A DNA stretch of 64,000 nt from an uncultured Pseudomonadota bacterium. Lineage in GTDB: Bacteria; Bdellovibrionota_B; Oligoflexia; Oligoflexales; CAIYRB01. Position numbers and translations under genes: made by a program. The notes beneath the pieces are model-generated. The model ran no database searches and was not told the DNA's origin. It saw only the letters and a program-made list of their open reading frames with translations. Each line of letters opens with the position of its first letter. The first letter of the stretch is position 1. This document shows positions 7,134 through 28,029 of this stretch, in pieces. Location of the stretch: NCBI GenBank assembly GCA_903915625.1, contig CAIWTN010000090.1, positions 66,226 to 130,225 on the forward strand, in the 5' to 3' direction.

Positions 7134-9644
7134 TTAAACCTCTTCGCCTTCTAATTTTTGTACCTTACAGAGGCTAATGACCTTCTCACCGGTTTCGACC
7201 GCCATCAGGCGGACGCCTTGGGTCAACCGGCCGATAACACCAACCTCGTTGACATTAAACCGAGTGATCTTCCCAGACGACGTCATCACCATGAGGTCGT
7301 CATTTTCATCGACCTGAAGGATGCCAACGACCGGACCATTACGCTCAGTCACCTTGATGGTGAAGATCCCCTTACCACCGCGAGACTGTGTGCGATATTC
7401 CTCGAGCGGTGTGCGCTTACCGTACCCACCTTCGCAGACCGATAAAATCGTGAAATTACCGCGGATCACTTCCATGCCGATGACACGATCAGGCTCATTA
7501 GGCAGGCTGCTGGACGGAGTTTCCTCGATGGCACCCTCAACCCCAGCTTCAGGCACTTCACCCTCGCCAAAGCGAATCCCGGTAACACCTCGAGAAGCTC
7601 GACCTGTGGGACGAATCTCCTCCTCATTGAAGCGGATCGCTTTACCCCAACGAGTAGCGATCAGAATCTCGTTATCTCCGTTGGTGATGGCGCAACTTAC
7701 CAGCGAATCACCTTCGTCCAGCTTCAGTGCAATAATTCCTGAAGACCGAACGTTGGAATATGCCATGAGGTCGGTCTTCTTGACGAAGCCACCCGCTGTC
7801 ACCGAAACGATGTAGTGACCCTCTTTGAACTCTTTAACCGGCAGTACCGAGACGATTTTTTCACCCTCGGTCAATTTGCAAAGACTTGCAAAATGTTTAC
7901 CCCTAGAGCGGAGCGGTAACTCCGGCAACTGGTAGACCTTGATTTCAAAAACTCGACCGACGTTTGAGAAGCAAAGTAGAGTTTGGTGATTACTCGTCAT
8001 GAAGACGCTGCTTACGACATCTTCTTCGCGAGTCAGCATTCCGGCTTTGCCCTTGCCACCACGACGCTGCGCACGAATATCCTCGAGCGGAGTGCGCTTA
8101 ACGTAACCCGTGTGAGAAATCGTCACTGCGACTTCTTCATCAGCAACGAGGCTTTCCATGGTGAACTCATCAGCAGCAGATGCGATGATTTCAGTGCGGC
8201 GACCGTCACCGTGGGTTTCTCGTAAGAACTTGAGTTCGTCCCGAATCAGTCCGGTAACGCGCTCTGGCTTTTCCAAAATATCCTTAAGATCCGCAATCAC
8301 TGCGAGCACTTCTTTGTACTCGGCAATGATCTTATCACGCTCCAAGCCTGTCAGGCGCGCCAAACGCATCTCGAGAATGGCCTTCGTCTGGATATCCGAA
8401 AGACCAAATTTTGCAGTCAGTTCTGCTGCGGCCAACCCTGGGTCGCGCGATTTTCTGATAATCGCTACAACTTCGTCAATACTTTCAACTGCGATCTTCA
8501 AACCAGCGAGGATATGTCCACGCTCTTCGGATTTACGTAGCTCGTAAGCCGTACGCCTGAGGATGACCTCGCGACGATGCTGATAGAACACCTCCAATAA
8601 CTGCTTCAGATTGAGAATCCGTGGTGCACCGTTAACCAGTGCCACGACATTCACCCCGAAGGATGTCTGCATCGGTGTTAATTTGTAGAGATTGTTAAGG
8701 ATGATATCGGCGTTTTCGCCTTTTTTCAGGTCAATGACGACCCGAATACCGTCCTTATTAGACTCATCCCTAATATCTGAGAGGCCTTCGATCTTCTTGG
8801 CATGCACTAGTTCGGCAATCTTCTCAATCAAGCGCGATTTGTTAACTTGATATGGAATTTCCGAAATAACGATACGTTCTCGGCCTTGTTTCCCGGTGTC
8901 TTCAACAGAGGTCCGAGCCCGCATGATGACCGAGCCGTGACCGGTGAGATAAGCTGAGCGAATTCCCGCAACGCCATAAATAAGTCCAGCAGTTGGGAAA
9001 TCTGGACCTTTAACGTAATCCATTAAGCGATCAATCGAAATTTTTGGATCTTCGATGAGTGCTTCTAAAGCTTGTACGACTTCAAGAACATTATGTGGTG
9101 GAATATTGGTAGCCATACCTACAGCAATGCCGCTTGCACCGTTGATTAAAAGCTGAGGCAAGCGTGACGGCATGACAACTGGCTCTAATTCCTTGCCGTC
9201 ATAGTTCGGCACGAAATTGACCGTTTCCTTGTCAATGTCAGCGATCAACAGGTCTGCAATCTTCTCAAGTCTCGCCTCGGTATAACGCATCGCGGCAGCA
9301 CTATCGCCGTCGATGGATCCGAAGTTACCTTGTCCGTCCACCAGCGGGTAGCGCAGACTAAAGTCTTGAGCCAGGCGCACCATAGCTTCGTAGACCGAAG
9401 AGTCACCATGAGGGTGAAAGCGGCCTAAGACGTCCCCGACGATACGGGCACACTTAAGATACGGGCGATTATGAAAATTGCGCAGCTGATACATGGCGTA
9501 CAAGATCCGGCGCTGCACCGGCTTCAAGCCGTCTCTCGCGTCCGGCAGAGCACGCGAGACAATGACGCTCATCGAGTAGTCGAGGAATGACGAGCGCATT
9601 TCCTCTTCGATTTTGATCGGAATTACATGCTTAATCTGGTCCAT
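7134..9644 (-). CDS. gyrA: DNA gyrase subunit A
   Basis: 836 aa. The N-terminal region contains [24 protein letters not shown] and the AAAMRYTE active-site Tyr motif. C-terminal beta-pinwheel repeats. Confidence 0.97.
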
Positions 9645-13443: not shown

Positions 13444-13644
13444 TGGGGATAAACATGTAACTACAAGTACTTATTGAATAATTCGTGTATTTCGCCTGTT
13501 CATTGACGGTGGATAAATCAGTGGGCAAAATGGGGAGCAAATTGGGGATAAATCCACCCCCCCCAATTATCCACTTTTTACCCACAAGCAATCCCCGCAT
13601 GTTTTCAACCTGTTCTGAACAACTTACCCACAGGGTTACCCCCA
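13444..13644. promoter_or_regulatory. DnaA-box cluster (candidate oriC) in the dnaA-dnaN intergenic region
   Basis: Seven 9-mers within 2 mismatches of TTATCCACA. Reverse orientation: 13444-13452 and 13543-13551 (TTATCCCCA), 13508-13516 (TTATCCACC). Forward orientation: 13567-13575 (TTATCCACT), 13578-13586 and 13624-13632 (TTACCCACA), 13636-13644 (TTACCCCCA). Confidence 0.65.
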
Positions 13645-13653: not shown

Positions 13654-15165
13654 CTATTGAAGCTGTTCTAACTGCCGTTCTAATGTTTCGACGTGAGCCT
13701 TAAGATCCAGATCTCTGTCTAAGGTCTCTTCGATTTTTTTAACATTATGCATCACCGTAGTGTGGTCTTTGCCGCCGAATTTGTCGCCAATATCTGGGTA
13801 TGATGCATTGGTTAACTTGCGCGACAGGTACATAGCTATCTGCCTTGGTAAAGCGAATGCACGCTGACGCCGCTTAGATTTCAAATCTGCTATTTTGACC
13901 TTGAAATGTTCCGCGACGATCTTCTGTACGGCCTCAATCGTTAGCCTTCGGGGGGCTTCACCCAGCACGTCTCGAAACGTTCTGATGGCCAGATCCATCG
14001 TGATTTCTTCGCCTTGAAGAGCGGCGAAGGCATTGATTCTGTGGAGAGCACCTTCTAATTCTCTTACGTTTCGTTTCGCATGCTTGGCAATATACTCAGC
14101 AACATCAGGACGAAGTCGGATCTTAAGTTTATCGGCCTTGCTGTAAAGAATCGCAATCCTGTGCTCAACGCTAGGTGATTGGATGTCGGCTATCAGACCC
14201 CATTGAAAGCGATTGCGCAGTCGATCCTCGATATCCGGAATATCTTTCGGGAACATGTCCGAAGTGATGACAATCTGTTTTTTCGCAGCATAAAGAGTAT
14301 TGAAGGTATGAAAGAACTCTTCTTGGGTAGCTTTCTTACCAGAAATGAACTGGATATCATCGACCAAGAATACATCGCAATTACGGTATTTTTTTCGAAA
14401 GTCCCACATCTTAGCGAAACGCAAGCAGTAGATCATTTCATTCATGAAACGTTCACTTGCAATATAAGTAACAACCGCATTGGGATTGTTTTTCAGGACT
14501 AAATTACCGACGGCATGTAGGAGGTGAGTCTTACCTAGACCGGTACAGCCGTAAATGAAAAGGGGATTATAGGCCTTACCTGGATTTTCCGCGGCACTTA
14601 AGCAGGTTGCCACCGCAAATTGGTTGGAATCGCCTTTAATGAACGTGTCAAAAGTATAATTAGGGTTTAGGTGTCCCTCGGTCGATAACGAGCGAGAGAA
14701 TGCCTGCTTGGCTTCACCAGGCTCACCTATGGAATCGTAGGCCCCGATCTCCGGACCGAAATCACCACTAGTGTCGCCAGAAAAACTGATGTTGCTGCTT
14801 TGAACACCACTAGTACTTGACTGAGTAAACTCGGAGGGTAATCCGCCTTCGACTTCCACATTAATTTGCACATGATCGAGGCCAAGAGCATCTTTGCAGT
14901 GCTCTAGTTGGTACAGATACTCGTTCTGGAACCCCTGATAAAACACCATGTTTGGTAGAGTAATGGCGATATCGCCCGAACTGAGTAGTCGGCCTTGTAT
15001 CGGCTCGATCCAGCTCATAAAGGCATCTTCGTCGAGGATGTCCCGTAATTTTTGTTTGATGGCCATCCATGGGTTGTCGGTCGACCCACTAGTCCTTCCG
15101 CCACTCGAGGATGGTGCGGCGAAATCTTCAGCGGGAAACAGCGTTTGCATACCTGACTTATCCAT
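13654..15165 (-). CDS. dnaA: Chromosomal replication initiator protein DnaA
   Basis: AAA+ Walker A (GCTGLGKTHLLHA), sensor motifs and the C-terminal DNA-binding domain (DIGDKFGGKDHTTVMH). The longest ORF begins at a TTG (15261). I prefer the ATG at 15165 (MDKSGMQT..), which sits ahead of the conserved domain I (..AFMSWIEPI). The start remains uncertain. Confidence 0.92.
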   Translation of the reverse strand: MDKSGMQTLFPAEDFAAPSSSGGRTSGSTDNPWMAIKQKLRDILDEDAFMSWIEPIQGRLLSSGDIAITLPNMVFYQGFQNEYLYQLEHCKDALGLDHVQINVEVEGGLPSEFTQSSTSGVQSSNISFSGDTSGDFGPEIGAYDSIGEPGEAKQAFSRSLSTEGHLNPNYTFDTFIKGDSNQFAVATCLSAAENPGKAYNPLFIYGCTGLGKTHLLHAVGNLVLKNNPNAVVTYIASERFMNEMIYCLRFAKMWDFRKKYRNCDVFLVDDIQFISGKKATQEEFFHTFNTLYAAKKQIVITSDMFPKDIPDIEDRLRNRFQWGLIADIQSPSVEHRIAILYSKADKLKIRLRPDVAEYIAKHAKRNVRELEGALHRINAFAALQGEEITMDLAIRTFRDVLGEAPRRLTIEAVQKIVAEHFKVKIADLKSKRRQRAFALPRQIAMYLSRKLTNASYPDIGDKFGGKDHTTVMHNVKKIEETLDRDLDLKAHVETLERQLEQLQ

Positions 15166-15331
15166 AGGCTTCGAAAATGACGTTTGAGAAATGGCAGCTT
15201 TCCCAATTTTCAATGGTGCAAAACAGCACCGGAAGCTACCATAGGCCCACCTTTGCAGCAAGTTTTTTATTTTGTTATTTTCTTCGTAAAGTTAGTGGGT
15301 TACGTGAAATCTGCGACCGACATTTTCATAG

Positions 15332-15370: not shown

Positions 15371-15628
15371 GTGCCAAATCTTGGTAGAGCATTCAGCTAC
15401 TTAATCGCGGCCCAGGTTCAGGCCGTCAGCTTGATATTTCTTGCATATTGGGCTGGTGATTGGCTCAACAAAAACCACCCAATCGGTTTCAATTGGTACG
15501 TAGTTACTTTCACCATCGGCGTCTTGGGAGTTGCGCAAACCTTCTACGTAGTGATACGCGCAGCGATGATCCAGGGCAAGCAGCAGCCCGAAAAGACTGA
15601 CGACACGAAATCCGGCTCTGACGCATGA
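15371..15628 (+). CDS. AtpZ/AtpI-family small membrane protein (putative F0F1-ATPase accessory subunit)
   Basis: 85 aa with two TM helices. The motif LAYWAGDWLNK resembles the G-x-W-L-D core of the ATPase_gene1 family. GTG start. Sits at the head of the atpI-atpB-atpE block. Confidence 0.55.
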   Translation: MPNLGRAFSYLIAAQVQAVSLIFLAYWAGDWLNKNHPIGFNWYVVTFTIGVLGVAQTFYVVIRAAMIQGKQQPEKTDDTKSGSDA

Positions 15629-16023
15629 ACTCAACCATCCATAGATTGATAATTTTAGCCACGATTTCGTTGGCGGTGATCACTGTCTTGCCGCTGCCCA
15701 AAAACGCATCAACAGCGCTCGTTGCCGGTGAGTTTTTGTTCGCAGGAAATTCGGCGCTTTTGTTTTTTATAGCGCGGAAGATTTTTAACACTAATGTCAG
15801 TAATGTAGGTAATCGCCGTAGCGGAGTCTTTTTTCTCCTAGCGATTGCGCTTAAAGTTTTCGGTCTCGGACTCGGTATCTACATAGGTTTAGTGGTTTGG
15901 CGTCTGCCGGTAATATATTTTGTCAGCGGAGCCGTTGCTGGTCTGATTGTCCTTGTGCTTGCTGTTATGATTGGCCCCACCCACGGTGATAAAAAGGTGG
16001 AAGAAGTTTCGCACGCAGAGTAA
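15625..16023 (+). CDS. Putative ATP synthase protein I (membrane protein)
   Basis: 132 aa with four predicted TM segments. 4-nt overlap with the preceding ORF. Immediately upstream of atpB. Assigned by position and topology only. Confidence 0.45.
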   Translation: MNSTIHRLIILATISLAVITVLPLPKNASTALVAGEFLFAGNSALLFFIARKIFNTNVSNVGNRRSGVFFLLAIALKVFGLGLGIYIGLVVWRLPVIYFVSGAVAGLIVLVLAVMIGPTHGDKKVEEVSHAE

Positions 16024-16154
16024 CCTGCGCGGCGGATTGTATCCGTGAGAGAGTAAACTTTTTACTACCAAAGGATCTGGATCTAGGTTAGTAGATCAGT
16101 CCGTTTGACGATAGTGCCACTCTCTTCCTGTTCCTCGTGGAGCGCTGAGTAACC

Positions 16155-16946
16155 TTGAAGAATATAACTTTAAAACGATTGTGTGCTTTCGGTTTGCTCG
16201 GAGTAGCGGGACCTGCTTTAGGTGCTGAAGGTGGTGGCGCAGGCGTCGCGAACTTCATCAACTACTACGAAATTCTCTTGCACAGCCTGCATATTAGTCA
16301 CGTGTGGGAGCCTACCCTAGGGGGGCTTCTGTGCCTTCTTGTAATTGTACTTTGCGGATTGTACTACCGAGCCTCGGTAAATAAGTCGGGTGACGAGGTA
16401 GCTCCTTCGGAGAAGTTTTCCCTTCGTTTTTTAATCGAAGAGATGCTCGAGTTCGTAGTTGGGATAGCGAAGGACAATACCCAAGAGCAGTACCGGAACT
16501 TTTTCCCGTTTCTTGCGGCTCTTTTTGTTTACATCGTCGTGTGCAATTTATCGGGCCTGATTCCAGGTTTTCCTCCGCCTACAGAAACTATGGATAACAA
16601 TGTAGCGGTTGGTATCTGCACCTTTTTAGTTTACAACTATGCAGGGATTAAAGAGCACGGCACAGCTTATATTAAGCATTTTCTCGGCCCAGTGGTTTTT
16701 ATTGCTCCTTTGTTCTTTTGTATCGAATTAGTAAGTCACTTTTCACGCCCATTATCGCTAGGTCTTAGATTGACTGGCAACATTTATGGTGACCATACTT
16801 TGCTTGGCGTGTTTACTAGTTTGAGTTACTTAGTATTTCCAGCTTTATTGATGTTCTTTGGATTGATAGTAGCGATAGTTCAAAGCGTCGTGTTTACATT
16901 GTTATCTGGAATTTATATTTCAATGGCGATTTCTCACGACCATTGA
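16155..16946 (+). CDS. atpB: F0F1 ATP synthase subunit a
   Basis: Polytopic protein with the conserved Arg region (SRPLSLGLRLTGNIYGDHTLL). 263 aa. TTG start in the track. Confidence 0.9.
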   Translation: MKNITLKRLCAFGLLGVAGPALGAEGGGAGVANFINYYEILLHSLHISHVWEPTLGGLLCLLVIVLCGLYYRASVNKSGDEVAPSEKFSLRFLIEEMLEFVVGIAKDNTQEQYRNFFPFLAALFVYIVVCNLSGLIPGFPPPTETMDNNVAVGICTFLVYNYAGIKEHGTAYIKHFLGPVVFIAPLFFCIELVSHFSRPLSLGLRLTGNIYGDHTLLGVFTSLSYLVFPALLMFFGLIVAIVQSVVFTLLSGIYISMAISHDH

Positions 16947-17001
16947 TTGTTCATAAATTGGTGCGCCGTTCTAGGCACTTTTGAGAGTGGGGTAAGGGTT
17001 C

Positions 17002-17319
17002 ATGAAAGGTTTCTTCAGTAGAGCAGCGATGGCATTCGGTGGTTTGTTCTTAAGCTCTTTGGCGTTTGCCCAGGAAGCGGCGGCGTCGGCATCAGCTGGT
17101 AACAGCTGGGTTCCAATTGGTGCGGGTCTGACAATGGCCGTTGCATCCTTTGGTGCTGCAACTGCACAAGGGCGCACCGCAACTGCCGCTCTTGAAGGCA
17201 TTGCCCGCAACCCAAATGCGAAAGACGCTTTGTTCCAACCGTTCATTCTCGGTCTCGTGTTCATGGAATTCCAAGCTTTGCTCGGTTTCGTGATCGCGAT
17301 CATCTGGACGTTCAAGTGA
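17002..17319 (+). CDS. atpE: F0F1 ATP synthase subunit c
   Basis: Hairpin proteolipid: GLTMAVASFGAATAQG .. ARNP loop .. LGLVFMEFQAL with the essential carboxylate. Confidence 0.9.
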   Translation: MKGFFSRAAMAFGGLFLSSLAFAQEAAASASAGNSWVPIGAGLTMAVASFGAATAQGRTATAALEGIARNPNAKDALFQPFILGLVFMEFQALLGFVIAIIWTFK

Positions 17320-17352
17320 GATTTTCTCTCTAGTTCGCCAGTGACAGACAGA

Positions 17353-17392
17353 AGCGGCATCAACTTAAGTGTTTGATGCCGCTGTTTTTTTT
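17353..17392 (+). terminator. Rho-independent terminator after atpE
   Basis: Stem AGCGGCATCAA (17353-17363) pairs with TTGATGCCGCT (17373-17383). A T8 run follows at 17385-17392. Confidence 0.8.
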
Positions 17393-17398
17393 GGATTT

Positions 17399-17414
17399 TG
17401 TTCCACGTGGAACA
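17399..17414. promoter_or_regulatory. parS: parS centromere site 1 (TGTTCCACGTGGAACA)
   Basis: Perfect 16-bp palindrome. Differs from the consensus TGTTNCACGTGAAACA at one position. Confidence 0.85.
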
Positions 17415-17975
17415 ATCTTTAGTCGCGGGGCGTTTTTAGAAAACTCTACGCCGAGGCGTCCCTGTAAAAGTTCGGAAATGCCTATTGACCCGCCTTTCTC
17501 TTGGCCGGCGTGGCCGTCTCTTACCCTTCTAGCGTCACGGTCTAGGTGCCGGGACCTTGGCGTGTTTTTCAGCATTGGTGTCGAGTTTGCAGTAGCCCTA
17601 ACAGAAATAGGAGCTCGTAGGTGCCCATTTGCGTGTCAAGACCTGCTGGTCGGTCCCGTGAATGAGGCGGCTAGGTAAGATCTACCGGCGCATAAGGGTG
17701 GCGGCACTGCTCATGACGGGCTGAAGGCTGAGGCAGTCTCTCCGGGCACCCAAGACGCTCCGTAATCGGTCATCATTCTCTTCAACTTGCGCTGTCCGCA
17801 TGCTTCAAGCTTATAGGAACATCGGTCCTCTTGGTCGTTTCGCTGCGGACACGGCCGGCTGAGGCGGTCTCAATTCTAACGGGCAAGTTGGCGGGTTCTA
17901 GGCAGTGGGCAGTCTAGGTCAATCATCAGTGATAGGAGATGAGGCTTCGCGGTTATGAAATCGGCTTAGGGCGAG

Positions 17976-17991
17976 AGAATTATATAATTCT
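17976..17991. repeat. Perfect 16-bp palindrome AGAATTATATAATTCT, function unknown
   Basis: Read directly. An AT-only island inside GC-normal non-coding DNA. It contains TATAAT on both strands. Confidence 0.9.
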
Positions 17992-18131
17992 GTGCGGCAC
18001 GGCCGTCTTTCGCCTAGTTGGATTCCGCTATTTCCTTGTTTTGGAGGCGGTGTTCGCTGCTTCGACGTAACGGTGGTTTACAAATGGGGTTCCGCGGGTC
18101 GATGTGCGTTGGAAGTTTCGTGACGCCTCGA

Positions 18132-18147
18132 TGTTCCACGTGGAACA
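18132..18147. promoter_or_regulatory. parS: parS centromere site 2 (TGTTCCACGTGGAACA)
   Basis: Identical to site 1. Confidence 0.85.
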
Positions 18148-18735
18148 AATCCTAGGTAGGTGTATTTTGACCGGAAAAACTGGAGGTTAGGGTGATCTTC
18201 TCGCCCTTGGCAGACAGATTCTTGGCCGAGTGAATCATAGAGTCCCATAGTAGAAGCTGTTTGCTAGGCTAGGCTGGAGTCGTAGGTTGATTTCTATTCG
18301 TTCAAGACCGCAATAGCGCTAGCGCGTGGTGAGATGTGTGGTGTGGTCAGGATTCTTTCGTGTCCGAAACAGGATCTAGGATTCCGTCTGTGGCGGGCAA
18401 CTTCGAACGATTGCAAATAGGCTGGCTTTCCGCGCGATGCTCCTCTGAAAGTTTTTTCGGGGGAGTGAGGTCGATCTATTTCGCTTCGCTGCCACATCGG
18501 TAGCCTCTGCGCAGCGAAACGTGGCCTTTGACTCATTAAGCGCTCGATTGCGCTGTGGCGAGGTTGTTCGTTGTCGGTGTGGGTTGGGGCGGCACTCTAG
18601 CTGGCCTCGGCCCCCAAGAGTGGGGGAGCGACTCGTCGAATATCCGGTGACTATCGCCTTAAGTCTAAGTTGCCTGCAATGCAATAATTGCCGTAACATA
18701 TTGGTATTATTGATATAAATGGCAAATATTTAATG

Positions 18736-18751
18736 TGTTCCACGTGGAACA
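18736..18751. promoter_or_regulatory. parS: parS centromere site 3 (TGTTCCACGTGGAACA)
   Basis: Identical to sites 1 and 2. Confidence 0.85.
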
Positions 18752-18870
18752 TCCCAGCCAGAAAATCTGCCAGGATCAGTTTATCTTAGAAAAAATCTCA
18801 ATTACATGCGCAAAAGTCAGTAAATTCGACCTTAAGATTACTTGAGATGCCCCAAAGTAACTTATTCGGA

Positions 18871-19010
18871 TCAAAAAAAGAATTTTGCCCCAAAAAAAAC
18901 GTTTTTTGTGTCAAAAAAAGGTTTTTACAGAGAAAAGACAATTTTTTTTTAAAAAAAGAACTTTTTCGCTCTTGGAAGAGCTTTTTTTGCATAAAAATTA
19001 AGTTTTTTTG
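18871..19010. repeat. Phased A-tract/T-tract quasi-palindromes (A7-8 N1-4 T4-6 units)
   Basis: A-runs begin at 18873, 18892, 18913 and 18951, each followed by a T-run (for example CAAAAAAAACGTTTTTTG). There is also a T9A7 junction at 18942-18957 and T7 runs at 18982 and 19003. Confidence 0.8.
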
Positions 19011-19046
19011 TAAATACCCGTACTAATGAGATTTTTCATAGCAAAT

Positions 19047-19062
19047 TGTTCCACGTGAAACA
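19047..19062. promoter_or_regulatory. parS: parS centromere site 4 (TGTTCCACGTGAAACA)
   Basis: Exact match to the consensus TGTTNCACGTGAAACA. Confidence 0.9.
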
Positions 19063-19098
19063 AAAATAAAAACAAAATAATTTTGTTTATAGCCATAA

Positions 19099-19114
19099 TG
19101 TTCCACGTGAAACA
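19099..19114. promoter_or_regulatory. parS: parS centromere site 5 (TGTTCCACGTGAAACA)
   Basis: Exact match to the consensus, 52 bp from site 4 and about 100 bp upstream of parA. Confidence 0.9.
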
Positions 19115-19144
19115 ATTTGAGGTGCAGCAAGGCGCGTTAAGCTC

Positions 19145-19173
19145 TTCTCAAAGGGCAAGCCCATTGCTATAGT
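19145..19173 (+). promoter_or_regulatory. Candidate sigma-70 promoter for parAB (TTCTCA-17 nt-TATAGT)
   Basis: Hexamers at 19145-19150 and 19168-19173 with a 17-nt spacer, 45 nt upstream of the parA ATG. A GGAGA RBS precedes the ATG. Pattern match only. Confidence 0.3.
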
Positions 19174-19217
19174 CGGCCCCTTGTCCCTCCAATTGTGTTC
19201 GCAGCGGAGACAGTCCA

Positions 19218-20051
19218 ATGGCCCGTGTAATAGCGGTTTCCAACCAAAAGGGAGGCGTGGGGAAAACCACTTCTGCCATAAATATCGCAGCTTGTCTGGC
19301 GGCGGCCGAAAAGCGGGTCCTTGTAATTGACTTGGACCCTCAGGCGAACGCGGGGAGTGGGCTTGGTATATATCGAGGCGACTTCGACACCAGCATGTAT
19401 AACGTTCTGGTTGAAGAGGTACCCATCACGACGGCAATACTACATACCGAACTAAAGTGCCTCGACCTGGCCCCATCAGTTCAGGATTTAGTCGGTGCCG
19501 AGGTTGAGTTGGTGTCGGCTATAGGGCGTGAGGCTCGTCTCAAGGAGGCTCTCGAGCCGGTCCAAAAGCTTTACGACTTTATTATTATCGACTGTCCTCC
19601 GGCCCTCGGAATATTGACAGTAAATGCTCTGACTGCAGCCGACGCGGTGCTGATTCCCCTGCAGTGTGAGTACTACGCAATGGAGGGGCTGTCTCAGCTC
19701 ATCAAAACCATCTCGTTGATCAAAAAGAGGCTGAATCCAGGATTGGAGCGGGAAGGTATTTTATTGACCATGTACGATCGTCGTAACAACTTGTCGCATC
19801 AAGTCGAGCAGGATATCAGGGCTCATTTTGGCGACGAAGTATTTCCGGTGGTGATTCCCCGCAATGTAAAGCTGTCCGAAGCCCCTTCCCACGGCAAACC
19901 AGTGATTCTATACGACATCAACAGCACCGGCGCAGTGGCTTATATGGAGACCGCGCGGCTGCTGATTAGGCGCAACCAGGCTAGGATTGCGGGGCGCCAG
20001 CGGGCAGAAAAAGGATCGCAGACTAAGCAGAGACCGTCCGACCATCAGTGA
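19218..20051 (+). CDS. parA: Chromosome partitioning ATPase ParA (Soj)
   Basis: Deviant Walker A (VSNQKGGVGKTTSAINIA). ParA-family motifs throughout. 277 aa. Confidence 0.95.
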   Translation: MARVIAVSNQKGGVGKTTSAINIAACLAAAEKRVLVIDLDPQANAGSGLGIYRGDFDTSMYNVLVEEVPITTAILHTELKCLDLAPSVQDLVGAEVELVSAIGREARLKEALEPVQKLYDFIIIDCPPALGILTVNALTAADAVLIPLQCEYYAMEGLSQLIKTISLIKKRLNPGLEREGILLTMYDRRNNLSHQVEQDIRAHFGDEVFPVVIPRNVKLSEAPSHGKPVILYDINSTGAVAYMETARLLIRRNQARIAGRQRAEKGSQTKQRPSDHQ

Positions 20052-20058
20052 GGAAGTG

Positions 20059-21000
20059 ATGACTATACGTGATAAAGCAGCGCCGCCTAGACGAGGTGCC
20101 TTAGGCAAGGGTATCTCGTCACTGCTTGGTGATATAGACGGAGAGGGCAAAGAGGCTGAATCTGCGGCCGCCAAGGTGGCTGAAGCCCACGCAAAGCGAC
20201 GACTAGAAGCTGAAGTCATCAAGCTTGACGTGAATGAAATTGACCCTAATCCGCGTCAACCACGCAAGCTATTCGATGATAAGGCGCTGAGAGAACTGTC
20301 CGAGAGCCTCAAGATAGACGGCGTCCTTCAGCCCATCGTAGTGACTCAGTCGGATCGATCCGGACGTTATTATGTGGTCGCCGGCGAACGACGCCTTAGG
20401 GCCTCTAAGCTCGCTGGTCTTCCTACTGTTCCGGCGATCGTGCGCGAGGGCGCAGCGAATGACCTTTTGCGCCTAGCCCTCATCGAAAACATTCAGCGTG
20501 CCGATCTCAACGTCCTTGAAGAGGCCGAAGCCTACGCCGCTTTGATCAAGGATTACGGACTGACGCAAGAACAGTGCGCAGATAAAGTTGGGAAAGAGCG
20601 ATCCACGGTAGCGAATTCACTCCGGATGCTTAGCTTACCCAAGGAGCTTCAGGACGATATTGTGACCGCCCGACTAACGATGGGCCACGGGCGCGCGATA
20701 CTGTCGCTTGACGACAAGAAGTTGATGCTTCGTTGTCGTGACATAGTCATAAAAAAATCGCTAAGCGTCCGGCAAACCGAACAACTTTGCAAAACTATTA
20801 AGGCCCCGGTCAAGAATGACGGCAAGTCTTCTGCGATAAAGGATGAGGCAGACCTTCAGTACATCACCGAAAGTCTTCGCACTTATCTTCACACCAAAGT
20901 CAGAGTCGCCGGTAGCACTAGTCGAGGCAAAATAGAAATTTCGTATTTCTCAGCGGCAGAGCTCGAGCGACTTTTAAAAGTTATGGGACATCGCTTTTAA
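20059..21000 (+). CDS. parB: Chromosome partitioning protein ParB (Spo0J)
   Basis: N-terminal GLGKGISSLLG, the ParB box with the CTPase motif (VVAGERRLRASKLAG), and an HTH (TQEQCADKVGKERSTVANSLRML). The start is set at the ATG at 20059, preceded by AGGAAG. The ORF-track start at 19987 would overlap parA. Confidence 0.93.
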   Translation: MTIRDKAAPPRRGALGKGISSLLGDIDGEGKEAESAAAKVAEAHAKRRLEAEVIKLDVNEIDPNPRQPRKLFDDKALRELSESLKIDGVLQPIVVTQSDRSGRYYVVAGERRLRASKLAGLPTVPAIVREGAANDLLRLALIENIQRADLNVLEEAEAYAALIKDYGLTQEQCADKVGKERSTVANSLRMLSLPKELQDDIVTARLTMGHGRAILSLDDKKLMLRCRDIVIKKSLSVRQTEQLCKTIKAPVKNDGKSSAIKDEADLQYITESLRTYLHTKVRVAGSTSRGKIEISYFSAAELERLLKVMGHRF

Positions 21001-21140
21001 AATCAGTCGCAACTCCGGCGCCAAAAATTTAATTATCTAAACAGCGTAAATCGGCTTGTTCGTTTGGCAAAAGTGCGTTAATCAGGGTCGCCCAAGCTGT
21101 TTGCCTTATTTTTCGTTTGCATTGCTCGCAGGTGACATCC

Positions 21141-21572
21141 ATGGCTACGCTAAATCTTATACCTAACCCCATGGTCCTAGGCGCTCAGATAGGCGTGTTC
21201 TATTTAAATTTCATTGCTGTAAAGAAATTATTCGTCCAACCATATTTGTCAGTGCGTGATCGCCGCCAGGCGCTAACCTTCGGCAGCCAGGACGAGGCGA
21301 CTAAGGCCTTAGCCCGCTGTGATCGCATAAGTAAGGACATCGAGTCCCGATATATTGCTTCGGCTACTGAGGCTAAGGCTGATCGCGAACAATTGCGAGA
21401 ACAAGCTCAAATTGCCAGGCAGACACTACTTAGCGCTGCTGAAAAGGACGCTAAGGCTGAAATAGCCAATGTGGAAAAGCAGATTCGCGAAGATCTGGCT
21501 ACGGAGAAAGAAAAGATACCTGGCGTAATCAAGTCTTTGTCGGATGAAGTTTATAAGCTCGCCCTGATCTGA
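21141..21572 (+). CDS. F0F1 ATP synthase subunit b-prime (b-like)
   Basis: A single N-terminal TM helix followed by a long charged coiled coil. Directly precedes a second b-type subunit. ATG at 21141 is preferred over the track start at 21117. Confidence 0.65.
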   Translation: MATLNLIPNPMVLGAQIGVFYLNFIAVKKLFVQPYLSVRDRRQALTFGSQDEATKALARCDRISKDIESRYIASATEAKADREQLREQAQIARQTLLSAAEKDAKAEIANVEKQIREDLATEKEKIPGVIKSLSDEVYKLALI

Positions 21573-21588
21573 TCGGAGATATCTGGAT

Positions 21589-22092
21589 ATGGAAGATCAT
21601 TTTGATATGTTGATGGGAGTTATTCTTCCATACGCGAATTTTGCAATCTTTTTGGGATTGGCGATTTATTTTTTCCGCAAGCCAGCTGCAGCTGCCGCGA
21701 AAAAGCGTCGCGAGCAGTACAGTAAGCTAGTCGCCGAGGCTACGGCTGCTCGAGATGCCGCCGTTGCTAAGCTTGATGAATTAAAAAAGAGGGAAGAGTC
21801 GCTTGCCGATGAATTAGCGAGTATAAAGGCAGCCTCGCACGAGAGCGCAGAGCAAGAGGCTTTCAAAATCGTCGCGGATGCAGAGCGGCTCGCTAGCCAC
21901 CTGCGGGCCGAAGCGGGGCGGATCGCGGCTGCGGAAGTGGCAAAGGCCCGTGCGGAACTGCGCAAAGAGATCGTCGACACTGTCACTGCCAGTGTGAAAG
22001 AAAAACTAGTGCGCGAATTAAGCGTAGATACGCAGTTGGTTTTGGCTCGCAAAAAGATAGATGAATTGAAGCACGTCGGCGCGGATAGCTGA
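21589..22092 (+). CDS. atpF: F0F1 ATP synthase subunit b
   Basis: An N-terminal TM helix plus an Ala/Glu/Lys/Arg-rich helix. Lies before atpH. Confidence 0.8.
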   Translation: MEDHFDMLMGVILPYANFAIFLGLAIYFFRKPAAAAAKKRREQYSKLVAEATAARDAAVAKLDELKKREESLADELASIKAASHESAEQEAFKIVADAERLASHLRAEAGRIAAAEVAKARAELRKEIVDTVTASVKEKLVRELSVDTQLVLARKKIDELKHVGADS

Positions 22093-22099
22093 GGTTTAC

Positions 22100-22645
22100 A
22101 TGTCACGGATTGCTAAACGGTATGCACAGGCTCTGTTGAAATTAACAGCAGGGGACCTTGGTAAAGCGAAAAACTACCGCGATAGTTTGAATGAATTGAA
22201 GGCGCTTTTTGGCCTCAATGAGGCGGCTAAGGTTCTTTATAGCCCCGTTATGCCGAACGACCTAAAAAAGAGTCTGCTGTCATACGGGCTAAAGGCGGCT
22301 AATGCTGGGGACGAGCTTAGCCAGATGGTCAACACCGTGGTCGATGCCGGGCGCGTTAGTTTGTTGCCGCAGGTTATCGACGTATTCGCCAAGCTGATCG
22401 ATGAGGCGGAGGGAAAAGTGCATGCGGAAGTTACCTCCGCTGTTTCGCTGCCGTCGGAAGATACTAAACAGATTGCAACCGCGCTAAGTCACTTGCTCGG
22501 CAAAAACGCAGAGATTACGCAGCTAGTCGATAGCTCGCTACTCGGGGGATTTGTCGTAAAAGTCGGTGATTATGTGGTCGACTTAAGCTTGAAAACCAAG
22601 CTTGAAGGTCTGGCCAACGCCGCGGTCCAAGATACTTTTCGTTAA
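22100..22645 (+). CDS. atpH: F0F1 ATP synthase subunit delta (OSCP)
   Basis: 181 aa. Starts with IAKRYAQAL.. as in OSCP. The C-terminal LGGFVVKVGDYVVDLSLKTKL motif is present. Confidence 0.88.
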   Translation: MSRIAKRYAQALLKLTAGDLGKAKNYRDSLNELKALFGLNEAAKVLYSPVMPNDLKKSLLSYGLKAANAGDELSQMVNTVVDAGRVSLLPQVIDVFAKLIDEAEGKVHAEVTSAVSLPSEDTKQIATALSHLLGKNAEITQLVDSSLLGGFVVKVGDYVVDLSLKTKLEGLANAAVQDTFR

Positions 22646-22657
22646 GGGAAGGCCGTC

Positions 22658-24169
22658 ATGAGCACAGAGAAGATCCGAGTAGAAGAAGTCAGCCGAATCA
22701 TCAGTGAGCGAATCAAGAACTACGGGCAAACCGCAGAGCTTCAGGAAACAGGCACCGTGCTCACTGTCGGCGACGGCATTGCGCGCGCCTATGGTCTTGA
22801 AGGCGCTATGGCAGGCGAGCTGGTTCAGTTTGAAAACGGAACCCGCGGCGTAGTTTTGAACCTCGAAGAAGACAATGTCGGTATCGCCATTTTCGGAAAC
22901 GTAAAAGGGATCGCAGAGGGCCAGGTCGTCAAGCGGCTCAAAGAGATTAATTCGGTGCCAGTAGGCGACGCGCTTTTGGGTCGCGTGGTAAATGCACTGG
23001 GCGAGCCAATCGACGGCCAAGGACCAGTTAACACGACTGAGACAGGTATTGTCGAAGTTAAGGCTCCCGGAATCATCGACCGTAAGTCGGTGCACGAGCC
23101 TCTGCAAACCGGTATTAAAGCAATTGATGCCATGACACCTATTGGTCGTGGTCAACGGGAATTGATCATTGGCGACCGGCAAACCGGCAAGACGACGATT
23201 TGCGTTGATACGATCATCAATCAAAAGGGCAAGGACGTAATCTGTATTTACGTTGCGATCGGCCAAAAGGCCTCGACCGTAGCCCAGGTCGTTGAGAAGC
23301 TGAAGCGTTTTGGCGCGATGGATTACACAATCGTGGTGGCCGCTACTGCGATTGACCCGGCACCGATGCAGTTCGTCGCACCATATTCGGGCTGTCGAAT
23401 GGCTGAGTACTTCCTGCATAAGGGCAAGCATGCGGTCATTTTCTACGATGACCTTTCGAAGCAAGCTGCTGCTTATCGTGAGTTATCGTTGTTGCTCCGC
23501 CGTCCTCCGGGTCGGGAAGCGTACCCAGGCGACGTATTTTACGTGCATAGTCGCTTGCTCGAGCGCGCTTGCAAGTTAAATGACAAGCTGGGCGCGGGTT
23601 CCATCACGGCATTCCCGGTGGTAGAAACACAAGCGGGTGATATCTCCGCCTATATTCCAACGAACGTGATTTCGATCACCGACGGGCAGATCTTCCTGGA
23701 AAGTGATCTTTTCTTCTCAGGTATCCGTCCAGCGATTAATGCCGGCCTTTCCGTGTCGCGGGTAGGCGGAGCAGCGCAGGTCCCTGGCATGAAGAAGGTC
23801 GCCGGATCGCTGCGCCTCGAATTGGCTCAATTTCGCGAATTAGCCGCATTTTCTCAATTCGGTTCCGACCTTGACCAGTCCACTCAAAGGACCCTCAAGC
23901 GCGGTGAGCGCCTCGTGGAGATCCTTAAGCAGGGTCAATACGCGCCAATGCAAGTTGGTCTTCAGATCGCCTCAATTTTTGCGGTGACCAAGGGCTACTT
24001 GGACAAGCGTGATGTTTCGCAGGTAGGGGAGTGGGAAAAAGGCATGCACGAATATCTGCTTGCACGTTACCCACAAGTAGCTGAGAAGCTCGAAAAGCGC
24101 GCCAAACTGGAAGATGTCCAAGCCGACTTGGTTAAGGCCATTGAAGAATTCGACAAGGGATTCAAGTAA
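22658..24169 (+). CDS. atpA: F0F1 ATP synthase subunit alpha
   Basis: Walker A GDRQTGKT. Highly conserved alpha-subunit sequence throughout. Confidence 0.98.
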
Positions 24170-25050
24170 TGCCAAGTTTAAAGGATATTCGCCGCCGCAT
24201 CGGCAGCGTGAAAAACACGCAGAAAATTACGCGCGCAATGAAATTAGTTGCCGCCGCGAAGTTCGCGCGTGCTAACGCAGCCGTCGTGGCCGCTAGGCCT
24301 TACGGCGCAGCCTTTCAGGCAATGGTTGAGCGTCTGGTGGCGGCAGCGGGTGGGAGTGTACCATCACCGCTCCTGAACGAACGCGAAGAGCATAAGATTT
24401 TGCTAGTGCTTCTTTCGACTGATCGTGGTTTTTGCGGTGGCTTGAATTCGAATTTGTTTAAGCAGGCCGTACAGTTTATCAATGCAAAAAGGCGTGACGG
24501 CGTTCAAGTAGACCTGATGCCTTGGGGACGCAGAGCTCGTCAATTTAGCGCAAAGTTGAGCTACGAAGTTCAAGACCCGCGGGAAAAAGTTCTTGATAAA
24601 CCGAGTTATGGTCTAGCCAAGGAATTGGCGGCGGACTTAGTACATCGCTTTGAACACGAGGGTTACGATCGGGTTTATCTGGGATTTGTCGAGTTTAAGT
24701 CGGCAATGTCGCAGGTTCCGAAATTTGCCCAGGTGTTGCCGGTAGGAAAGAGCCACTCCGGAAGGTCTCACAAAGAGCCGGAAATCGCTTTTGGGCCCGA
24801 TATTTTGGTAGAGCCGTCTATTCAAGAAGTACTCGAACAGGTTTTAAAGAGAGAAGTGGCTGGATTGATCTTCCGCGCCATGTTGGAGGGCGCAGCGTCC
24901 GAACACGGGGCTAGGATGACGGCAATGGATTCGGCAACAAACAATGCCAATGAAGTGCTGCGTCGGATGAAGATTCAATATAACCGCGCCCGGCAAGCAG
25001 CAATTACTAAAGAACTTATTGAAATCACCAGCGGCGCCCAGGCCCTGTGA
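24169..25050 (+). CDS. atpG: F0F1 ATP synthase subunit gamma
   Basis: N-terminal LKDIRRRIGSVKNTQKITRAMKLVAAAK and C-terminal ITKELIEI..GA. Confidence 0.95.
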   Translation: MPSLKDIRRRIGSVKNTQKITRAMKLVAAAKFARANAAVVAARPYGAAFQAMVERLVAAAGGSVPSPLLNEREEHKILLVLLSTDRGFCGGLNSNLFKQAVQFINAKRRDGVQVDLMPWGRRARQFSAKLSYEVQDPREKVLDKPSYGLAKELAADLVHRFEHEGYDRVYLGFVEFKSAMSQVPKFAQVLPVGKSHSGRSHKEPEIAFGPDILVEPSIQEVLEQVLKREVAGLIFRAMLEGAASEHGARMTAMDSATNNANEVLRRMKIQYNRARQAAITKELIEITSGAQAL

Positions 25051-25054
25051 GTGA

Positions 25055-26485
<1,431 letters not shown>

Positions 26486-26503
26486 TGCGAGAGGCTTCGG
26501 CCC

Positions 26504-26911
26504 ATGGCTGAACTACATGTGAGTATCTTGACCCCCGCTAAAGTAGCGGGGACGTTTTCGGCTGAGCAGGTCCAAGTACCAGGGATCGATGGTTATTTGG
26601 GGGTTCTGCCAGGACATACCCAGTTAATCTCGGAACTAGGCGTTGGTGAACTCTTGGTTCATACCCGGCAGGGTATCGAGAGTTACTTCGTGTCCGGTGG
26701 TTACCTCGACGTAGGCGAGGGCAATCACGTTACGATTCTTGTAGATATTGCCGAAAAGCCAGTGGATATCAAAGTCGACAGAGCTAAGGACGCTCGTCAG
26801 CGTGCGTTGTCTAGGCTTGATGATAAGAGCGGCGTGGACGTGTTGCGGGCTCAGGCTGCGCTGCGTCGGGCTGAACAGCGGCTTGTAGTCGCTGCGCGGC
26901 TCAGTAAGTGA
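26504..26911 (+). CDS. atpC: F0F1 ATP synthase subunit epsilon
   Basis: 135 aa with a beta-sandwich plus helical hairpin. Lies directly after atpD. Confidence 0.9.
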   Translation: MAELHVSILTPAKVAGTFSAEQVQVPGIDGYLGVLPGHTQLISELGVGELLVHTRQGIESYFVSGGYLDVGEGNHVTILVDIAEKPVDIKVDRAKDARQRALSRLDDKSGVDVLRAQAALRRAEQRLVVAARLSK

Positions 26912-28029
26912 AAGCTGAGTGGGGCCTTTATTGGGACGGCTACGGTTTAGACGCTCCCAATTCTGGTGTTTTTGTTCACGCAGCAAACTTAGCCGCAGAA
27001 TTAATTGGGTTGGGAGTCAGGCCGGTGTTGGTTGGGAAACCAGCAGCATTGGCCAATTTCCCTTTGCTAGAGGGTATAGCTCCTACTGCAGGAGCGCTAA
27101 GTAGATTCTTGCCGGATAATAAAATTTCGTGGTGTGCGGATGTTGCGCGCGCGATCTCCAAAAGGACGAGTCGCGGGCGCGCTCCGTTTATTATCCATGG
27201 TTTGAGTAATTTTAATGTGCCCGCTGGAACACTGGCAAGGTGCCGGCGGGTGTTGACGATACACGATTTGATACCATTGTTGGCTCCCGACCAAGTTTCA
27301 AAAGCTTTAGTTTGGCAGCTTAAATACTTACTGCCGCGAGCCGTGGCTGCAGCCGATCGAGTAGTTTGTGTGTCAGATTGGACTTATCAAACTTTAGTGA
27401 GTTTTATTCCCGAGGCTGCAGCGAAGGCTAGGGTGATCTCGAATGGTGTTTTCCGTCAATCCGCGTTTCCGAGTCGGACGGCAGAACGGCAGCGGAACCA
27501 GTCGATAGACTTATTATTCGTAGCCCGTTTCGAGCCTTATAAAGGCCATCATTGGTTGTTAAAATGGTTGAAGGAATCCGCCCTGCCACTGAAGTTAACT
27601 TTGATTACGGACGTTGGGGGGGAAGAGTTCTGGAATCGATATGGCTCTCAGTTGATCGCCAAGGGATCTGTCATTTTAAAGCGGAGTGTTTTTGGCGACG
27701 CACTTAGAGCGGCTTACGAGGCGGCCGATGTTTATGTAAGCCCCTCTCGTTTCGAAGGCTTTTGCTTACCCGCAGTTGAGGCACTAAGTGCCGGAATACC
27801 TGTTGTTTATCGTCCAGGTAGCGGGATTGACGAGGTGGCTGGTCTGAGCGTTGGCGTACCTGTTGATGATGCTAATTCGGTTCTAAGTTGGGACAAAGCA
27901 GTCGAAGAGGCGCTTGATCGCTCGCAGCGGGAGGATTTTCCTAAAATGCTAGCCGATCACCTCTCTTCACTTCCGACCTGGAAAGATGCGGCCATTCAGC
28001 TTTTGTCTCTGTATAATGAGTTAGTCTAA
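26908..28029 (+). CDS. Glycosyltransferase, GT-B fold (family 4-like)
   Basis: C-terminal EX7E-type motif (SRFEGFCLPAVEALSAGIPVV). The GTG start overlaps the atpC stop (GTGA). The start is uncertain. Confidence 0.75.
   Translation: MKAEWGLYWDGYGLDAPNSGVFVHAANLAAELIGLGVRPVLVGKPAALANFPLLEGIAPTAGALSRFLPDNKISWCADVARAISKRTSRGRAPFIIHGLSNFNVPAGTLARCRRVLTIHDLIPLLAPDQVSKALVWQLKYLLPRAVAAADRVVCVSDWTYQTLVSFIPEAAAKARVISNGVFRQSAFPSRTAERQRNQSIDLLFVARFEPYKGHHWLLKWLKESALPLKLTLITDVGGEEFWNRYGSQLIAKGSVILKRSVFGDALRAAYEAADVYVSPSRFEGFCLPAVEALSAGIPVVYRPGSGIDEVAGLSVGVPVDDANSVLSWDKAVEEALDRSQREDFPKMLADHLSSLPTWKDAAIQLLSLYNELV

Follow-up and report, generated by a model that had tools for sequence, protein, structure and literature searches.

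The 64-kb stretch of DNA analyzed here (the window) belongs to an uncultured Oligoflexales/Bdellovibrionota-like bacterium and very probably includes its chromosomal centromere, with five exact parS sites grouped upstream of parAB in a gap of 1.9 kb that holds no genes and is bounded by the terminator of atpE on one side and the promoter of parA on the other. Clusters of parS near the origin are ordinary in kind, being well known from M. xanthus, P. aeruginosa and B. bacteriovorus. Less ordinary, to judge from comparison with relatives and from a structural model, are the unusual length and fast evolution of the non-coding gap, and an array of 20-bp repeats, predicted to be curved, that is kept in relatives.

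The parS sites and their genomic setting

To describe the array, we searched the window with the query TGTTNCACGTGNAACA, which gave five sites with 0 mismatches each, starting at 17399, 18132, 18736, 19047 and 19099. The first three carry the perfect palindrome TGTTCCACGTGGAACA and the last two carry TGTTCCACGTGAAACA; all five match the chromosomal parS consensus tGTTNCACGTGAAACa, a 16-bp inverted repeat, exactly. The exact search reproduces what the initial annotation had described: three palindromes and two sites of the consensus type at these positions, start-to-start spacings of 733, 604, 311 and 52 bp, and an array lying upstream of parAB. Its claim that the rest of the window holds no other parS-like site also stands, since no further match at ≤2 mismatches exists anywhere in the 64 kb; the chance level at this threshold, from 100 dinucleotide shuffles, is 0.08 matches on average with a maximum of 1. 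A 3-mismatch search of the window gives only two sites, both outside the tract. The spacers contain no decayed parS relics or half-sites, and half-parS heptamers occur in the tract only inside the five full sites. The features of the locus, in window coordinates, are:

13444-13632, unstranded: DnaA-box cluster in the dnaA-dnaN spacer, probable oriC; six near-consensus boxes within 190 bp
17350-17396, + strand: intrinsic terminator of atpB-atpE; GC-rich hairpin (GCGGCAUCAA...UUGAUGCCGC) followed by U8, ending 3 bp before parS1
17399-17414, unstranded: parS1, perfect palindrome; 100% conserved in the related loci L001 and L081
17415-18131, unstranded: spacer 1, 717 bp, GC ~55%, non-coding
18132-18147, unstranded: parS2, perfect palindrome; the conserved island spans 18119-18156
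18148-18735, unstranded: spacer 2, 588 bp, non-coding
18736-18751, unstranded: parS3, perfect palindrome; exact match, conserved in L001
18872-19010, unstranded: AT-rich A-tract/T-tract block, GC 25-33%; ~6-7 degenerate units of ~20 bp, A6-8-G-N1-3-T4-7-G(C)
19047-19062, + strand: parS4, TGTTCCACGTGAAACA; ~37 bp 3' of the A-tract block
19099-19114, + strand: parS5, TGTTCCACGTGAAACA; forms a promoter-proximal pair with parS4
19145-19173, + strand: putative sigma-70 promoter of parAB, TTCTCA-17 nt-TATAGT with an upstream TG; the -35 element is 30 bp 3' of parS5
19218-20051, + strand: parA, Soj-type ParA ATPase (Pfam AAA_31, 6.5e-69, plus CbiA)
20059-21000, + strand: parB, with a ParB_N CTPase-type domain containing the GERRLRA motif, HTH_ParB and ParB_C

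The gap that holds the sites is by far the largest gene-free gap of the window. At its upstream edge, the atpB-atpE terminator folds with -22.8 kcal/mol (z = -2.6); the segment is 95% identical in L001, and a similar hairpin with a T-run also lies 3' of atpE in L082, L083 and L161. At its downstream edge, the putative parAB promoter lies inside a 103-bp block that is 98% identical to L001, and its hexamers recur in L082 and L161.

The adjoining operon is a cognate one, combining a Soj-type ParA with a ParB that has a CTPase-type domain, an HTH and a C-terminal dimerization domain. The 313-residue ParB is of the chromosomal ParB/Spo0J type (TIGR00180, 4.3e-53; ParB_N, 3e-30; HTH_ParB, 1.8e-34; ParB_C, 1.9e-4), and the database protein P0001 is 100% identical to it at full coverage. 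We rejected an alternative parB start at TTG 19987: its product has no exact database match, while the product from ATG 20059 is P0001.

The tract is also close to the probable origin of replication. The genes dnaA (13654-15261, - strand) and dnaN lie 2-5 kb from it, the sign of the GC skew switches at ~12-14 kb of the window, and the probable oriC is ~3.8 kb from parS1, placing the tract as a whole at ~4-5.5 kb. Origin-proximal placement, as expected of chromosomal parS, is thus indicated by dnaA/dnaN, by the DnaA boxes and by the skew switch together. Because the probable oriC, marked by the box cluster and the skew switch, is only ~4 kb away, we interpret the tract as a chromosomal and not a plasmid-style centromere.

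Conservation of the sites and divergence of the spacers

The layout dnaA / atpB-atpE / parS / parAB recurs in Oligoflexales/Bdellovibrionota relatives. In 15 related loci, comprising every relative examined, the corresponding gap holds 2-7 parS sites, and the shared synteny reaches relatives at 50% ParB identity. Because synteny is common to all 15 down to this level of identity, the centromere locus is ancestral and vertically inherited. The initial annotation had raised the conservation of synteny and of the spacers in related genomes, and here the outcome is divided: gene order and parS sites are kept, but the sequence of the two long spacers (~62% identical to L001) and their lengths (altered by indels) are not.

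The contrast is clear against L001, a close relative whose ParB is 97% identical. All five parS sites are 100% identical between the two, while spacer 1 is 61.6% identical with an indel of ~155 bp, and spacer 2 is 62.8% identical with an indel of ~101 bp. By comparison, 4-fold degenerate sites of the flanking genes are 77.8% identical, and coding DNA is 90-97% identical. The sites are thus more conserved than their surroundings, whether these are taken as the spacers or as the 4-fold sites. L001 and L081 agree at 98.8-99.4% of positions in coding DNA and at 94-97% in the spacers. Substitutions relative to L001 are spread evenly over the three codon positions in the spacers (62/62/59 and 56/56/51), as against 7/5/64 in atpB. 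A Pfam search of nine small ORFs in the tract gave no match at E≤1, and neither Rfam families nor tRNAs were found there. With flat codon periodicity and indels of this size, these results uphold the view that the tract contains no credible ORF. Given the ~62% identity, the indels of 100-155 bp and the lack of codon periodicity, we conclude that the spacers are non-coding and their sequence is free to vary. Judged by these identities, strong purifying selection falls on the parS sites, not on the two long spacers. The array is in this respect one more well-resolved clustered origin-proximal chromosomal centromere, with comparative evidence that is unusually clean that only the 16-bp sites are constrained. 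Growth of the array by duplication of a parS-plus-spacer unit was rejected, as the spacers have no common repeats beyond parS.

Over larger distances, the gap retains a few elements. Comparison of the window with L082 (ParB 79% identical) leaves similarity only in the parS sites, the promoter block and the A-tract array. The spacing between parS4 and parS5, 52 bp here, is kept at ~47-56 bp in L001, L081, L082, L161, L162, L163 and L166. In all nine full-length loci of the subclade (65-100% ParB identity), the gap is gene-free and 0.76-1.9 kb long; over the wider clade its length ranges from 157 bp with two sites (L003) to the 1898 bp of the window. Because gap length varies so widely over the wider clade, a long platform is not required for function.

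The phased A-tract array

The AT-rich block between parS3 and parS4 has a regular repeat structure. TRF reports a period of 20 with the consensus CAAAAAAACGTTTTTTGCCC, the spacings of the repeat family are 19/21/19/19, and A6-8 and T4-7 tracts alternate ~10 bp apart inside units of 19-21 bp. In a wedge model with provisional parameters, this block is predicted to curve more strongly than any other DNA of the 64 kb: the ratio of end-to-end distance to contour length reaches its lowest value in the window here, 0.567 (z = -10.5). In the same model, with the same parameters, the curvature minimum falls inside the gap in eight of nine subclade loci, compared with five of 66 control loci (7.6 expected).

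Equivalent arrays are present in L082 (12.6 copies, 99% matching), L161 (6.9 copies), L163 and L083; the array is near-perfect in these relatives and degenerate in the window, and L167 has no detectable array. In four lineages the array lies ~25-47 bp from a parS site. The block of the window is 78% identical to L001, compared with 57-63% for the neighboring spacer DNA, and is thus conserved about as well as 4-fold sites (78%). A curved segment beside the upstream parS cluster of L004 was set aside as not comparable: it is a T-rich ORF for a membrane protein.

We consider this clade-specific array of predicted curvature, together with the persistently long gene-free spacers, a more useful lead than the parS cluster itself. 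If they have a function, the centromeres of bacterial chromosomes could contain architectural DNA modules in addition to parS, and the locus would offer a concrete sequence for probing the context-dependent control of ParB loading reported in Bdellovibrio-like bacteria.

Proposed mechanism, known systems and alternative readings

Known ParABS biology suggests how such a centromere would work. ParB dimers would bind CTP, clamp shut at each parS and slide to the flanking DNA; five loading points 52-733 bp apart would feed one continuous ParB-coated zone of ~2-3 kb. One partition complex would form per origin copy, to be segregated by ParA, and would probably also load SMC. No transcription unit has to run through the tract, with atpBE stopping 3 bp before parS1 and parAB reading away, so the clamps would meet few RNA-polymerase roadblocks. 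A non-coding tract with a terminator at one end and the parA promoter at the other agrees with a zone dedicated to ParB loading, and the initial annotation's idea of a purpose-built sliding platform would be compatible with the data. In this scheme we infer the occupancy of the tract by ParB, the range of spreading and the transcriptional silence. The parS4/parS5 pair lies 30-80 bp upstream of the -35 element, so that ParB would load beside its own promoter and might autoregulate parAB through these two sites. The A-tract array would be a second, clade-specific component, most likely architectural, that might fold the partition complex or, more speculatively, bind a nucleoid protein that gates the access of ParB.

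How does this locus compare with characterized centromeres? In most species with ParABS, several parS sites lie near oriC (PMC7022226). The premise of the initial annotation, that clustering is unusual, was too strong: multiple near-oriC sites are common (PMC7022226), M. xanthus has 22 in 3 kb (PMC3899335), B. bacteriovorus has two (PMC10547168), and every relative examined here has 2-7. In B. bacteriovorus the two sites lie upstream of parAB (bd3906/bd3905) near oriC, and the native DNA on the flanks of each parS (242-330 bp) prevents ParB from forming foci in attack-phase cells via an unidentified host-specific factor (Kaljevic et al. 2023, PMC10547168). Because native flanks have this effect, the DNA context around parS is known to matter in the Bdellovibrio lineage. 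The window resembles this system in belonging to the same broad lineage (Bdellovibrionota/Oligoflexia) and in having identical canonical parS copies upstream of parAB near oriC. It differs in having five sites instead of two, much longer spacers and a phased A-tract array, in the position of parABS (between atpE and atpF', as opposed to downstream of gidB-like genes), and in being known from sequence alone.

M. xanthus has 22-24 parS sites in ~3 kb, located ~4 kb upstream of parA (Iniesta 2014, PMC3899335; Harms et al. 2013, PMC3778016). Both loci concentrate many canonical parS copies densely within a short stretch dedicated to them, upstream of parAB and near the origin region. The M. xanthus cluster is denser, with ~1 parS per 140 bp as against 1 per 340 bp in the window, and is not directly beside the parA promoter. 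To our knowledge, no phased A-tract array accompanies it. According to PMC7022226 and Livny et al. 2007 as cited there, origin-proximal parS clusters also include parS1-4 of P. aeruginosa and the 10 sites of C. glutamicum, as well as those of C. crescentus and B. subtilis. In these model bacteria, parS serves for loading and spreading of ParB-CTP and for recruitment of SMC (PMC7022226). They share with the window the 16-bp consensus and the presence of several copies in the ori domain; however, many of their sites are inside genes and spread over 10-400 kb, whereas the sites detected in the window lie in one 1.7-kb non-coding stretch.

The initial annotation had likened the array to a plasmid-style centromere. 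Plasmids do carry iteron-type centromeres, such as parC of R1 and sopC of F. The dense intergenic layout of the window recalls this arrangement, as does its tandem, iteron-like 20-bp array, which resembles type Ib/II plasmid centromeres such as parH of TP228 (PMC3130281) in the helical phasing of repeats within a partition locus, being itself AT-rich and suspected of curvature. However, the repeats of plasmid centromeres are bound by an adjacent cognate protein, whereas in the window the ParB sites are separate parS palindromes, no cognate protein is evident that would bind the 20-bp units, and the locus was found to have no gene for an RHH or ParR-like centromere-binding protein. The setting is chromosomal as well: the tract lies between atpE and parAB, ~4 kb from dnaA/dnaN, with dnaN-dnaA, the probable oriC and the atp operon as its neighbors, and the context of dnaN, dnaA and atpBE/atpF'FHAGDC is conserved across the clade, the same synteny holding in 15 relatives. 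The sites fit the chromosomal consensus, ParB is of the chromosomal type, and blastn of the spacers against PLSDB (72,556 plasmids) gave no match. That the centromere was acquired horizontally, or is left over from a plasmid or mobile element that integrated, is thus almost certainly the wrong reading. It is highly improbable, too, that the AT-rich block is the DNA-unwinding element of a bipartite oriC and not part of the centromere: the block is repetitive, has the lowest GC of the region (25-33%) and lies ~5 kb from dnaA, but from 16597 to 21470 nothing resembles a DnaA box, while six boxes are clustered in the dnaA-dnaN spacer, and the atpB-atpE transcription unit separates the block from dnaA. 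Moreover, its 20-bp A-tract/T-tract unit is unlike 13-mer DUE or DnaA-trio patterns. An oriC or DUE inside the tract was accordingly rejected. It is very unlikely that an unannotated gene for a non-coding RNA or a small protein occupies the tract, with parS sites interspersed. The + strand of spacer 2 does fold mildly better than shuffled sequence (z = -2.1 to -3.2 in the window, L001 and L081), with the - strand at about -0.9, and in some relatives gene callers predict hypothetical ORFs of 81-159 aa within the gap. Yet RNAalifold gives spacer 2 no covariation support (term +0.4, many broken pairs), spacer 1 has no folding signal (z = 0.04), promoter prediction finds none in the spacers, and their identity is below the synonymous-site level, in addition to the lack of Rfam and Pfam matches and of codon periodicity.

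The alternative of most weight is that the spacers are decaying junk, left by an old pseudogene or insertion, and the array a neutral minisatellite, so that only parS and the promoter matter; this is quite possible, though on balance unlikely. Both long spacers have changed faster than 4-fold sites and differ by large indels, the gap measures anything between 157 and 1898 bp within the clade, and array units differ between lineages but are homogenized within arrays (98-99%), as replication slippage predicts; L167 lacks an array, and the array of the window is no more conserved than synonymous sites. On the other hand, useless DNA is normally deleted from bacterial genomes, and this gene-free gap is nonetheless kept at 0.76-1.9 kb in every full-length subclade locus, is the largest of the window, and contains the predicted curvature minimum far more often than control loci do, while the motif, period and predicted curvature of the array outlast all other spacer similarity. 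We also propose, tentatively and as a rather doubtful reading, that the centromere of this subclade is composite: parS sites with long, sequence-free and transcription-free spacers would be joined by the phased 20-bp array as a functional architectural or regulatory module, for example a curved scaffold that folds the ParB condensate or an array on which a nucleoid protein specific to the lineage docks and gates the access of ParB to parS. If the array docks such a gating protein, it would be a candidate, at the sequence level, for the "chromosomal context" factor by which ParB is kept from clustering in Bdellovibrio cells that do not replicate (PMC10547168).

As a separate observation, the A-tract array appears to break metagenome assemblies at the parS locus.

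parS sites and their setting

An exact search of the 64-kb window with the pattern TGTTNCACGTGNAACA returned exactly five matches, all with 0 mismatches, starting at 17399, 18132, 18736, 19047 and 19099 (parS1 to parS5; spacings 733, 604, 311 and 52 bp). Three of the five are the perfect palindrome TGTTCCACGTGGAACA and the other two are TGTTCCACGTGAAACA; the positions, sequences and spacings in the initial annotation were thus correct in every detail. Its further claim, that the remaining window has no other parS-like site, holds at ≤2 mismatches: the search that it had proposed, run on the 64-kb window, found only these five and no sixth, against a chance expectation from dinucleotide shuffles of mean 0.08 and maximum 1. 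Within the gene-free tract between atpE and parA, we found no parS-like sites with 3-4 mismatches, and no half-parS heptamers apart from those within the five full sites. The tract is framed by the following features:

13444-13632: DnaA-box cluster, six near-consensus boxes in the 287-bp dnaA-dnaN spacer
13654-15261, minus strand: dnaA (Pfam)
15371-15628: small ORF, weakly AtpZ-like
16155-16946: atpB (Pfam)
17002-17319: atpE (Pfam)
3' of atpE, ending at ~17396: strong hairpin with U8 run, 3 bp before parS1
18872-19010: AT-rich block, GC 25-33%, ~6-7 degenerate units of 19-21 bp
19145-19173: sigma-70-like promoter, TTCTCA-17-TATAGT with upstream TG, 30 bp downstream of parS5
19218-20051: parA (Pfam)
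19987-21000: parB ORF (Pfam), real start ATG 20059
21117-21572: weak AtpF/b'-like ORF
Downstream of this ORF: atpF, atpH, atpA
After atpA: atpG, atpD, atpC, assigned from ORF order alone

Read from ATG 20059, ParB has 313 aa, is 100% identical to the database protein P0001, and shows in translation GERRLRA, a motif of the N-terminal CTP-binding domain. No other gene-free stretch of the window comes near the 1898 bp of the atpE-parA gap. Within window 15371-28000, the parABS cassette sits in the middle of an F-type ATP synthase cluster, between atpE (subunit c) and the b'-like gene, adjoining dnaA. Because the DnaA-box cluster coincides with a sign change of GC skew at ~12-14 kb, the dnaA-dnaN spacer is probably oriC, ~3.8 kb from parS1. 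In B. bacteriovorus, oriC has been reported in a like setting.

The locus has canonical parS, maintained by selection, in non-coding DNA that runs from a terminator to the promoter of parAB, beside the probable oriC and its cognate parAB. In everything that can be judged from sequence it conforms to a chromosomal parS centromere, and it belongs to this known class. The initial interpretation stands in part: the centromere is a dedicated one, but it is neither plasmid-style nor unusual in its clustering per se. It does not qualify as a plasmid-type centromere, and no spacer similarity to plasmids was found. Several origin-proximal parS are the rule (PMC7022226), and M. xanthus, with 22 parS in 3 kb, has a dense dedicated cluster upstream of parA (PMC3899335) that resembles the five-site cluster here. 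B. bacteriovorus also has parS upstream of parAB, but two sites rather than five; there, short stretches of native flanking DNA (242-330 bp) keep ParB foci from forming in attack-phase cells via a host factor (PMC10547168).

By established ParABS biology (reviewed in PMC7022226 and PMC7333895; single-molecule work in PMC8299390), ParB-CTP clamps would load at every parS and slide outwards. Since the sites are only 52-733 bp apart, the five would produce a single contiguous ParB domain, the partition complex, which ParA would move and to which SMC would be recruited. Transcription of atpBE would stop at parS1 and that of parAB runs away from the tract, so RNA polymerase need not cross it; this would help clamps to accumulate. 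Since parS4 and parS5, a conserved pair, lie directly 5' of the -35 element, ParB loading may be coupled to parAB expression.

Synteny and constraint among relatives

Relatives gathered by ParB-based searches comprise L001 and L081, a near-identical pair from Lake Pavin (ParB identity 97%), a graded series at 65-82% (L161, L162, L163, L082, L083, L167, L164, L165, L166), and distant Oligoflexales/Bdellovibrionota MAGs at 50-56% (L002-L006, L085). The order dnaN-dnaA, (atpZ/I) atpB atpE, parS, parA parB atpF' atpF atpH is common to the whole set of relatives, including those with only 50% ParB identity, so that, on gene order, the placement of parABS inside a split atp operon beside oriC is ancestral and vertical. 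Every relative examined has 2-5 parS in the atpE-parA gap. The distant locus L004 has three there and, upstream of atpB at 6883-7158, another cluster with four copies of one parS sequence (TGTTTCACGTGAAACA); within the clade, then, both the number of parS and their location change.

The synteny comparison suggested in the initial annotation found gene order and parS kept, with varying spacer sequences and gap lengths of 160-1898 bp: 1653-1664 bp in L001 and L081, 1039-1074 bp in L161 and L082, 1882 bp in L083, 1672 bp in L164, 1646 bp in L165, 763 bp in L167, and 160-1083 bp in the distant group.

Table. Identity between the window and L001
Each of the five parS: 100%
103 bp from parS5 to the parA ATG: 98%
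Coding DNA: 90-97%
parS4-parS5 spacer: 92%
4-fold degenerate sites (pooled): 77.8%
Spacer 3 (parS3-parS4): 71%
Spacer 2 (parS2-parS3): 62.8%
Spacer 1 (parS1-parS2): 61.6%

Judged by these contrasts, the 16-bp parS sites, the proximal parS4/parS5 pair and the promoter region are strongly constrained, and sequence in the long spacers can change freely. L001 and L081 are 98.8-99.4% identical to each other in coding DNA and 94-97% in the spacers. The segment from parS5 to the parA start codon (19115-19217) exceeds adjacent coding DNA in its identity to L001; it holds the putative promoter and a ~40-nt leader, and may contain further regulatory sites.

Different spacers have no repeats in common beyond parS itself. 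The sole ≥18/20-conserved island of spacers 1-3 detached from any parS, at 17792-17813 (CTGTCCGCATGCTTCAAGCTTA), may be due to chance. Spacer GC at 17415-18700 (52-58%) is higher than the 50% mean of the window, which is unexpected in unconstrained bacterial DNA; this is not common to L082, L083 and L002, where the gaps are AT-richer than their own loci.

Coding and RNA content of the tract

The initial annotation saw no credible ORF in the tract, and our analysis bears this out: none of nine small tract ORFs has a Pfam match at E≤1, and substitutions relative to L001, which fall overwhelmingly at third codon positions in atpB (7/5/64), parA (3/2/41) and parB (9/6/57), are flat across positions in the spacers (62/62/59, 56/56/51, 32/29/24). 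Spacer indels amount to about 155 and 101 bp. The whole window contains no Rfam family at gathering score and no tRNAs.

For spacer 1, predicted folding matches that of shuffled sequence (z = 0.04). The + strand of spacer 2 folds modestly better than dinucleotide shuffles (z = -2.1 to -3.2 for window 18148-18735, L001 8189-8678 and L081 4182-4678; - strand, z about -0.9), a signal common to lineages only 63% identical there. A conserved structured RNA in spacer 2 is not supported, because in RNAalifold many pairs are broken and the covariation term is +0.4, which gives no covariation support.

A 20-bp array with predicted curvature

The remaining interest of the locus lies in its persistently long unconstrained spacers and in a clade-specific array of A-tracts and T-tracts, predicted to be curved, whose units in the window have the form A6-8-G-N1-3-T4-7-G(C). 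Counterparts in the relatives are:

L082, 4483-4733: 12.6 copies of the 20-bp unit GGAAAAAAGTGGTTTTTGCA, 99% matching
L161, 4669-4806: 6.9 copies of CGGATAAAAGTGGTTTTTGC, 98% matching
L163, 1-56: contig starts within a 20-bp array
L083, 4204-4383: about 7-8 copies of GCGAAAAAAAAGGCTAATTA
L164, 4238-4361: 51-bp repeat made up of the shared A5-N4-T5 motif

L165 has a weak trace only, and the L167 gap has no A-tract array. In a wedge model with approximate Bolshoy-type parameters, whose values are qualitative only, curvature over 126-bp segments peaks, for the whole 64-kb window, at 18975 (end-to-end/contour ratio 0.567, z = -10.5). The predicted locus-wide curvature minimum lies in the gap for 8 of the 9 subclade loci and for none of the 6 distant Oligoflexales ones; among 66 parAB loci of other phyla it does so in 5, against 7.6 expected by length alone.

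AT-rich arrays of 20-bp period are confined to these subclade gaps among 161 sequences (1.95 Mb) surveyed. They are positioned within parS clusters, usually ending 25-47 bp from a parS (window, L082, L161, L163), and in the gap the window and L082 remain similar only in parS, the promoter block and the array itself. If the array has a role, an architectural or protein-docking one would be most plausible, speculatively; that it is functional in this sense we consider rather unlikely. Some lineages have near-perfect units, whereas those of the window are degenerate. The array could instead be a neutral minisatellite maintained by slippage in dispensable DNA, a possibility that we regard as somewhat doubtful. 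In a limited literature search, no chromosomal parS cluster was described as containing phased A-tract arrays, which is not proof of novelty.

Three independent metagenome contigs end inside the gap, 230-370 bp upstream of parA (L162, 1-256; L163, 1-373; L166, 1-228). This pattern, with L163 stopping within a 20-bp array, suggests that short-read assemblies of the locus break on the repeat.
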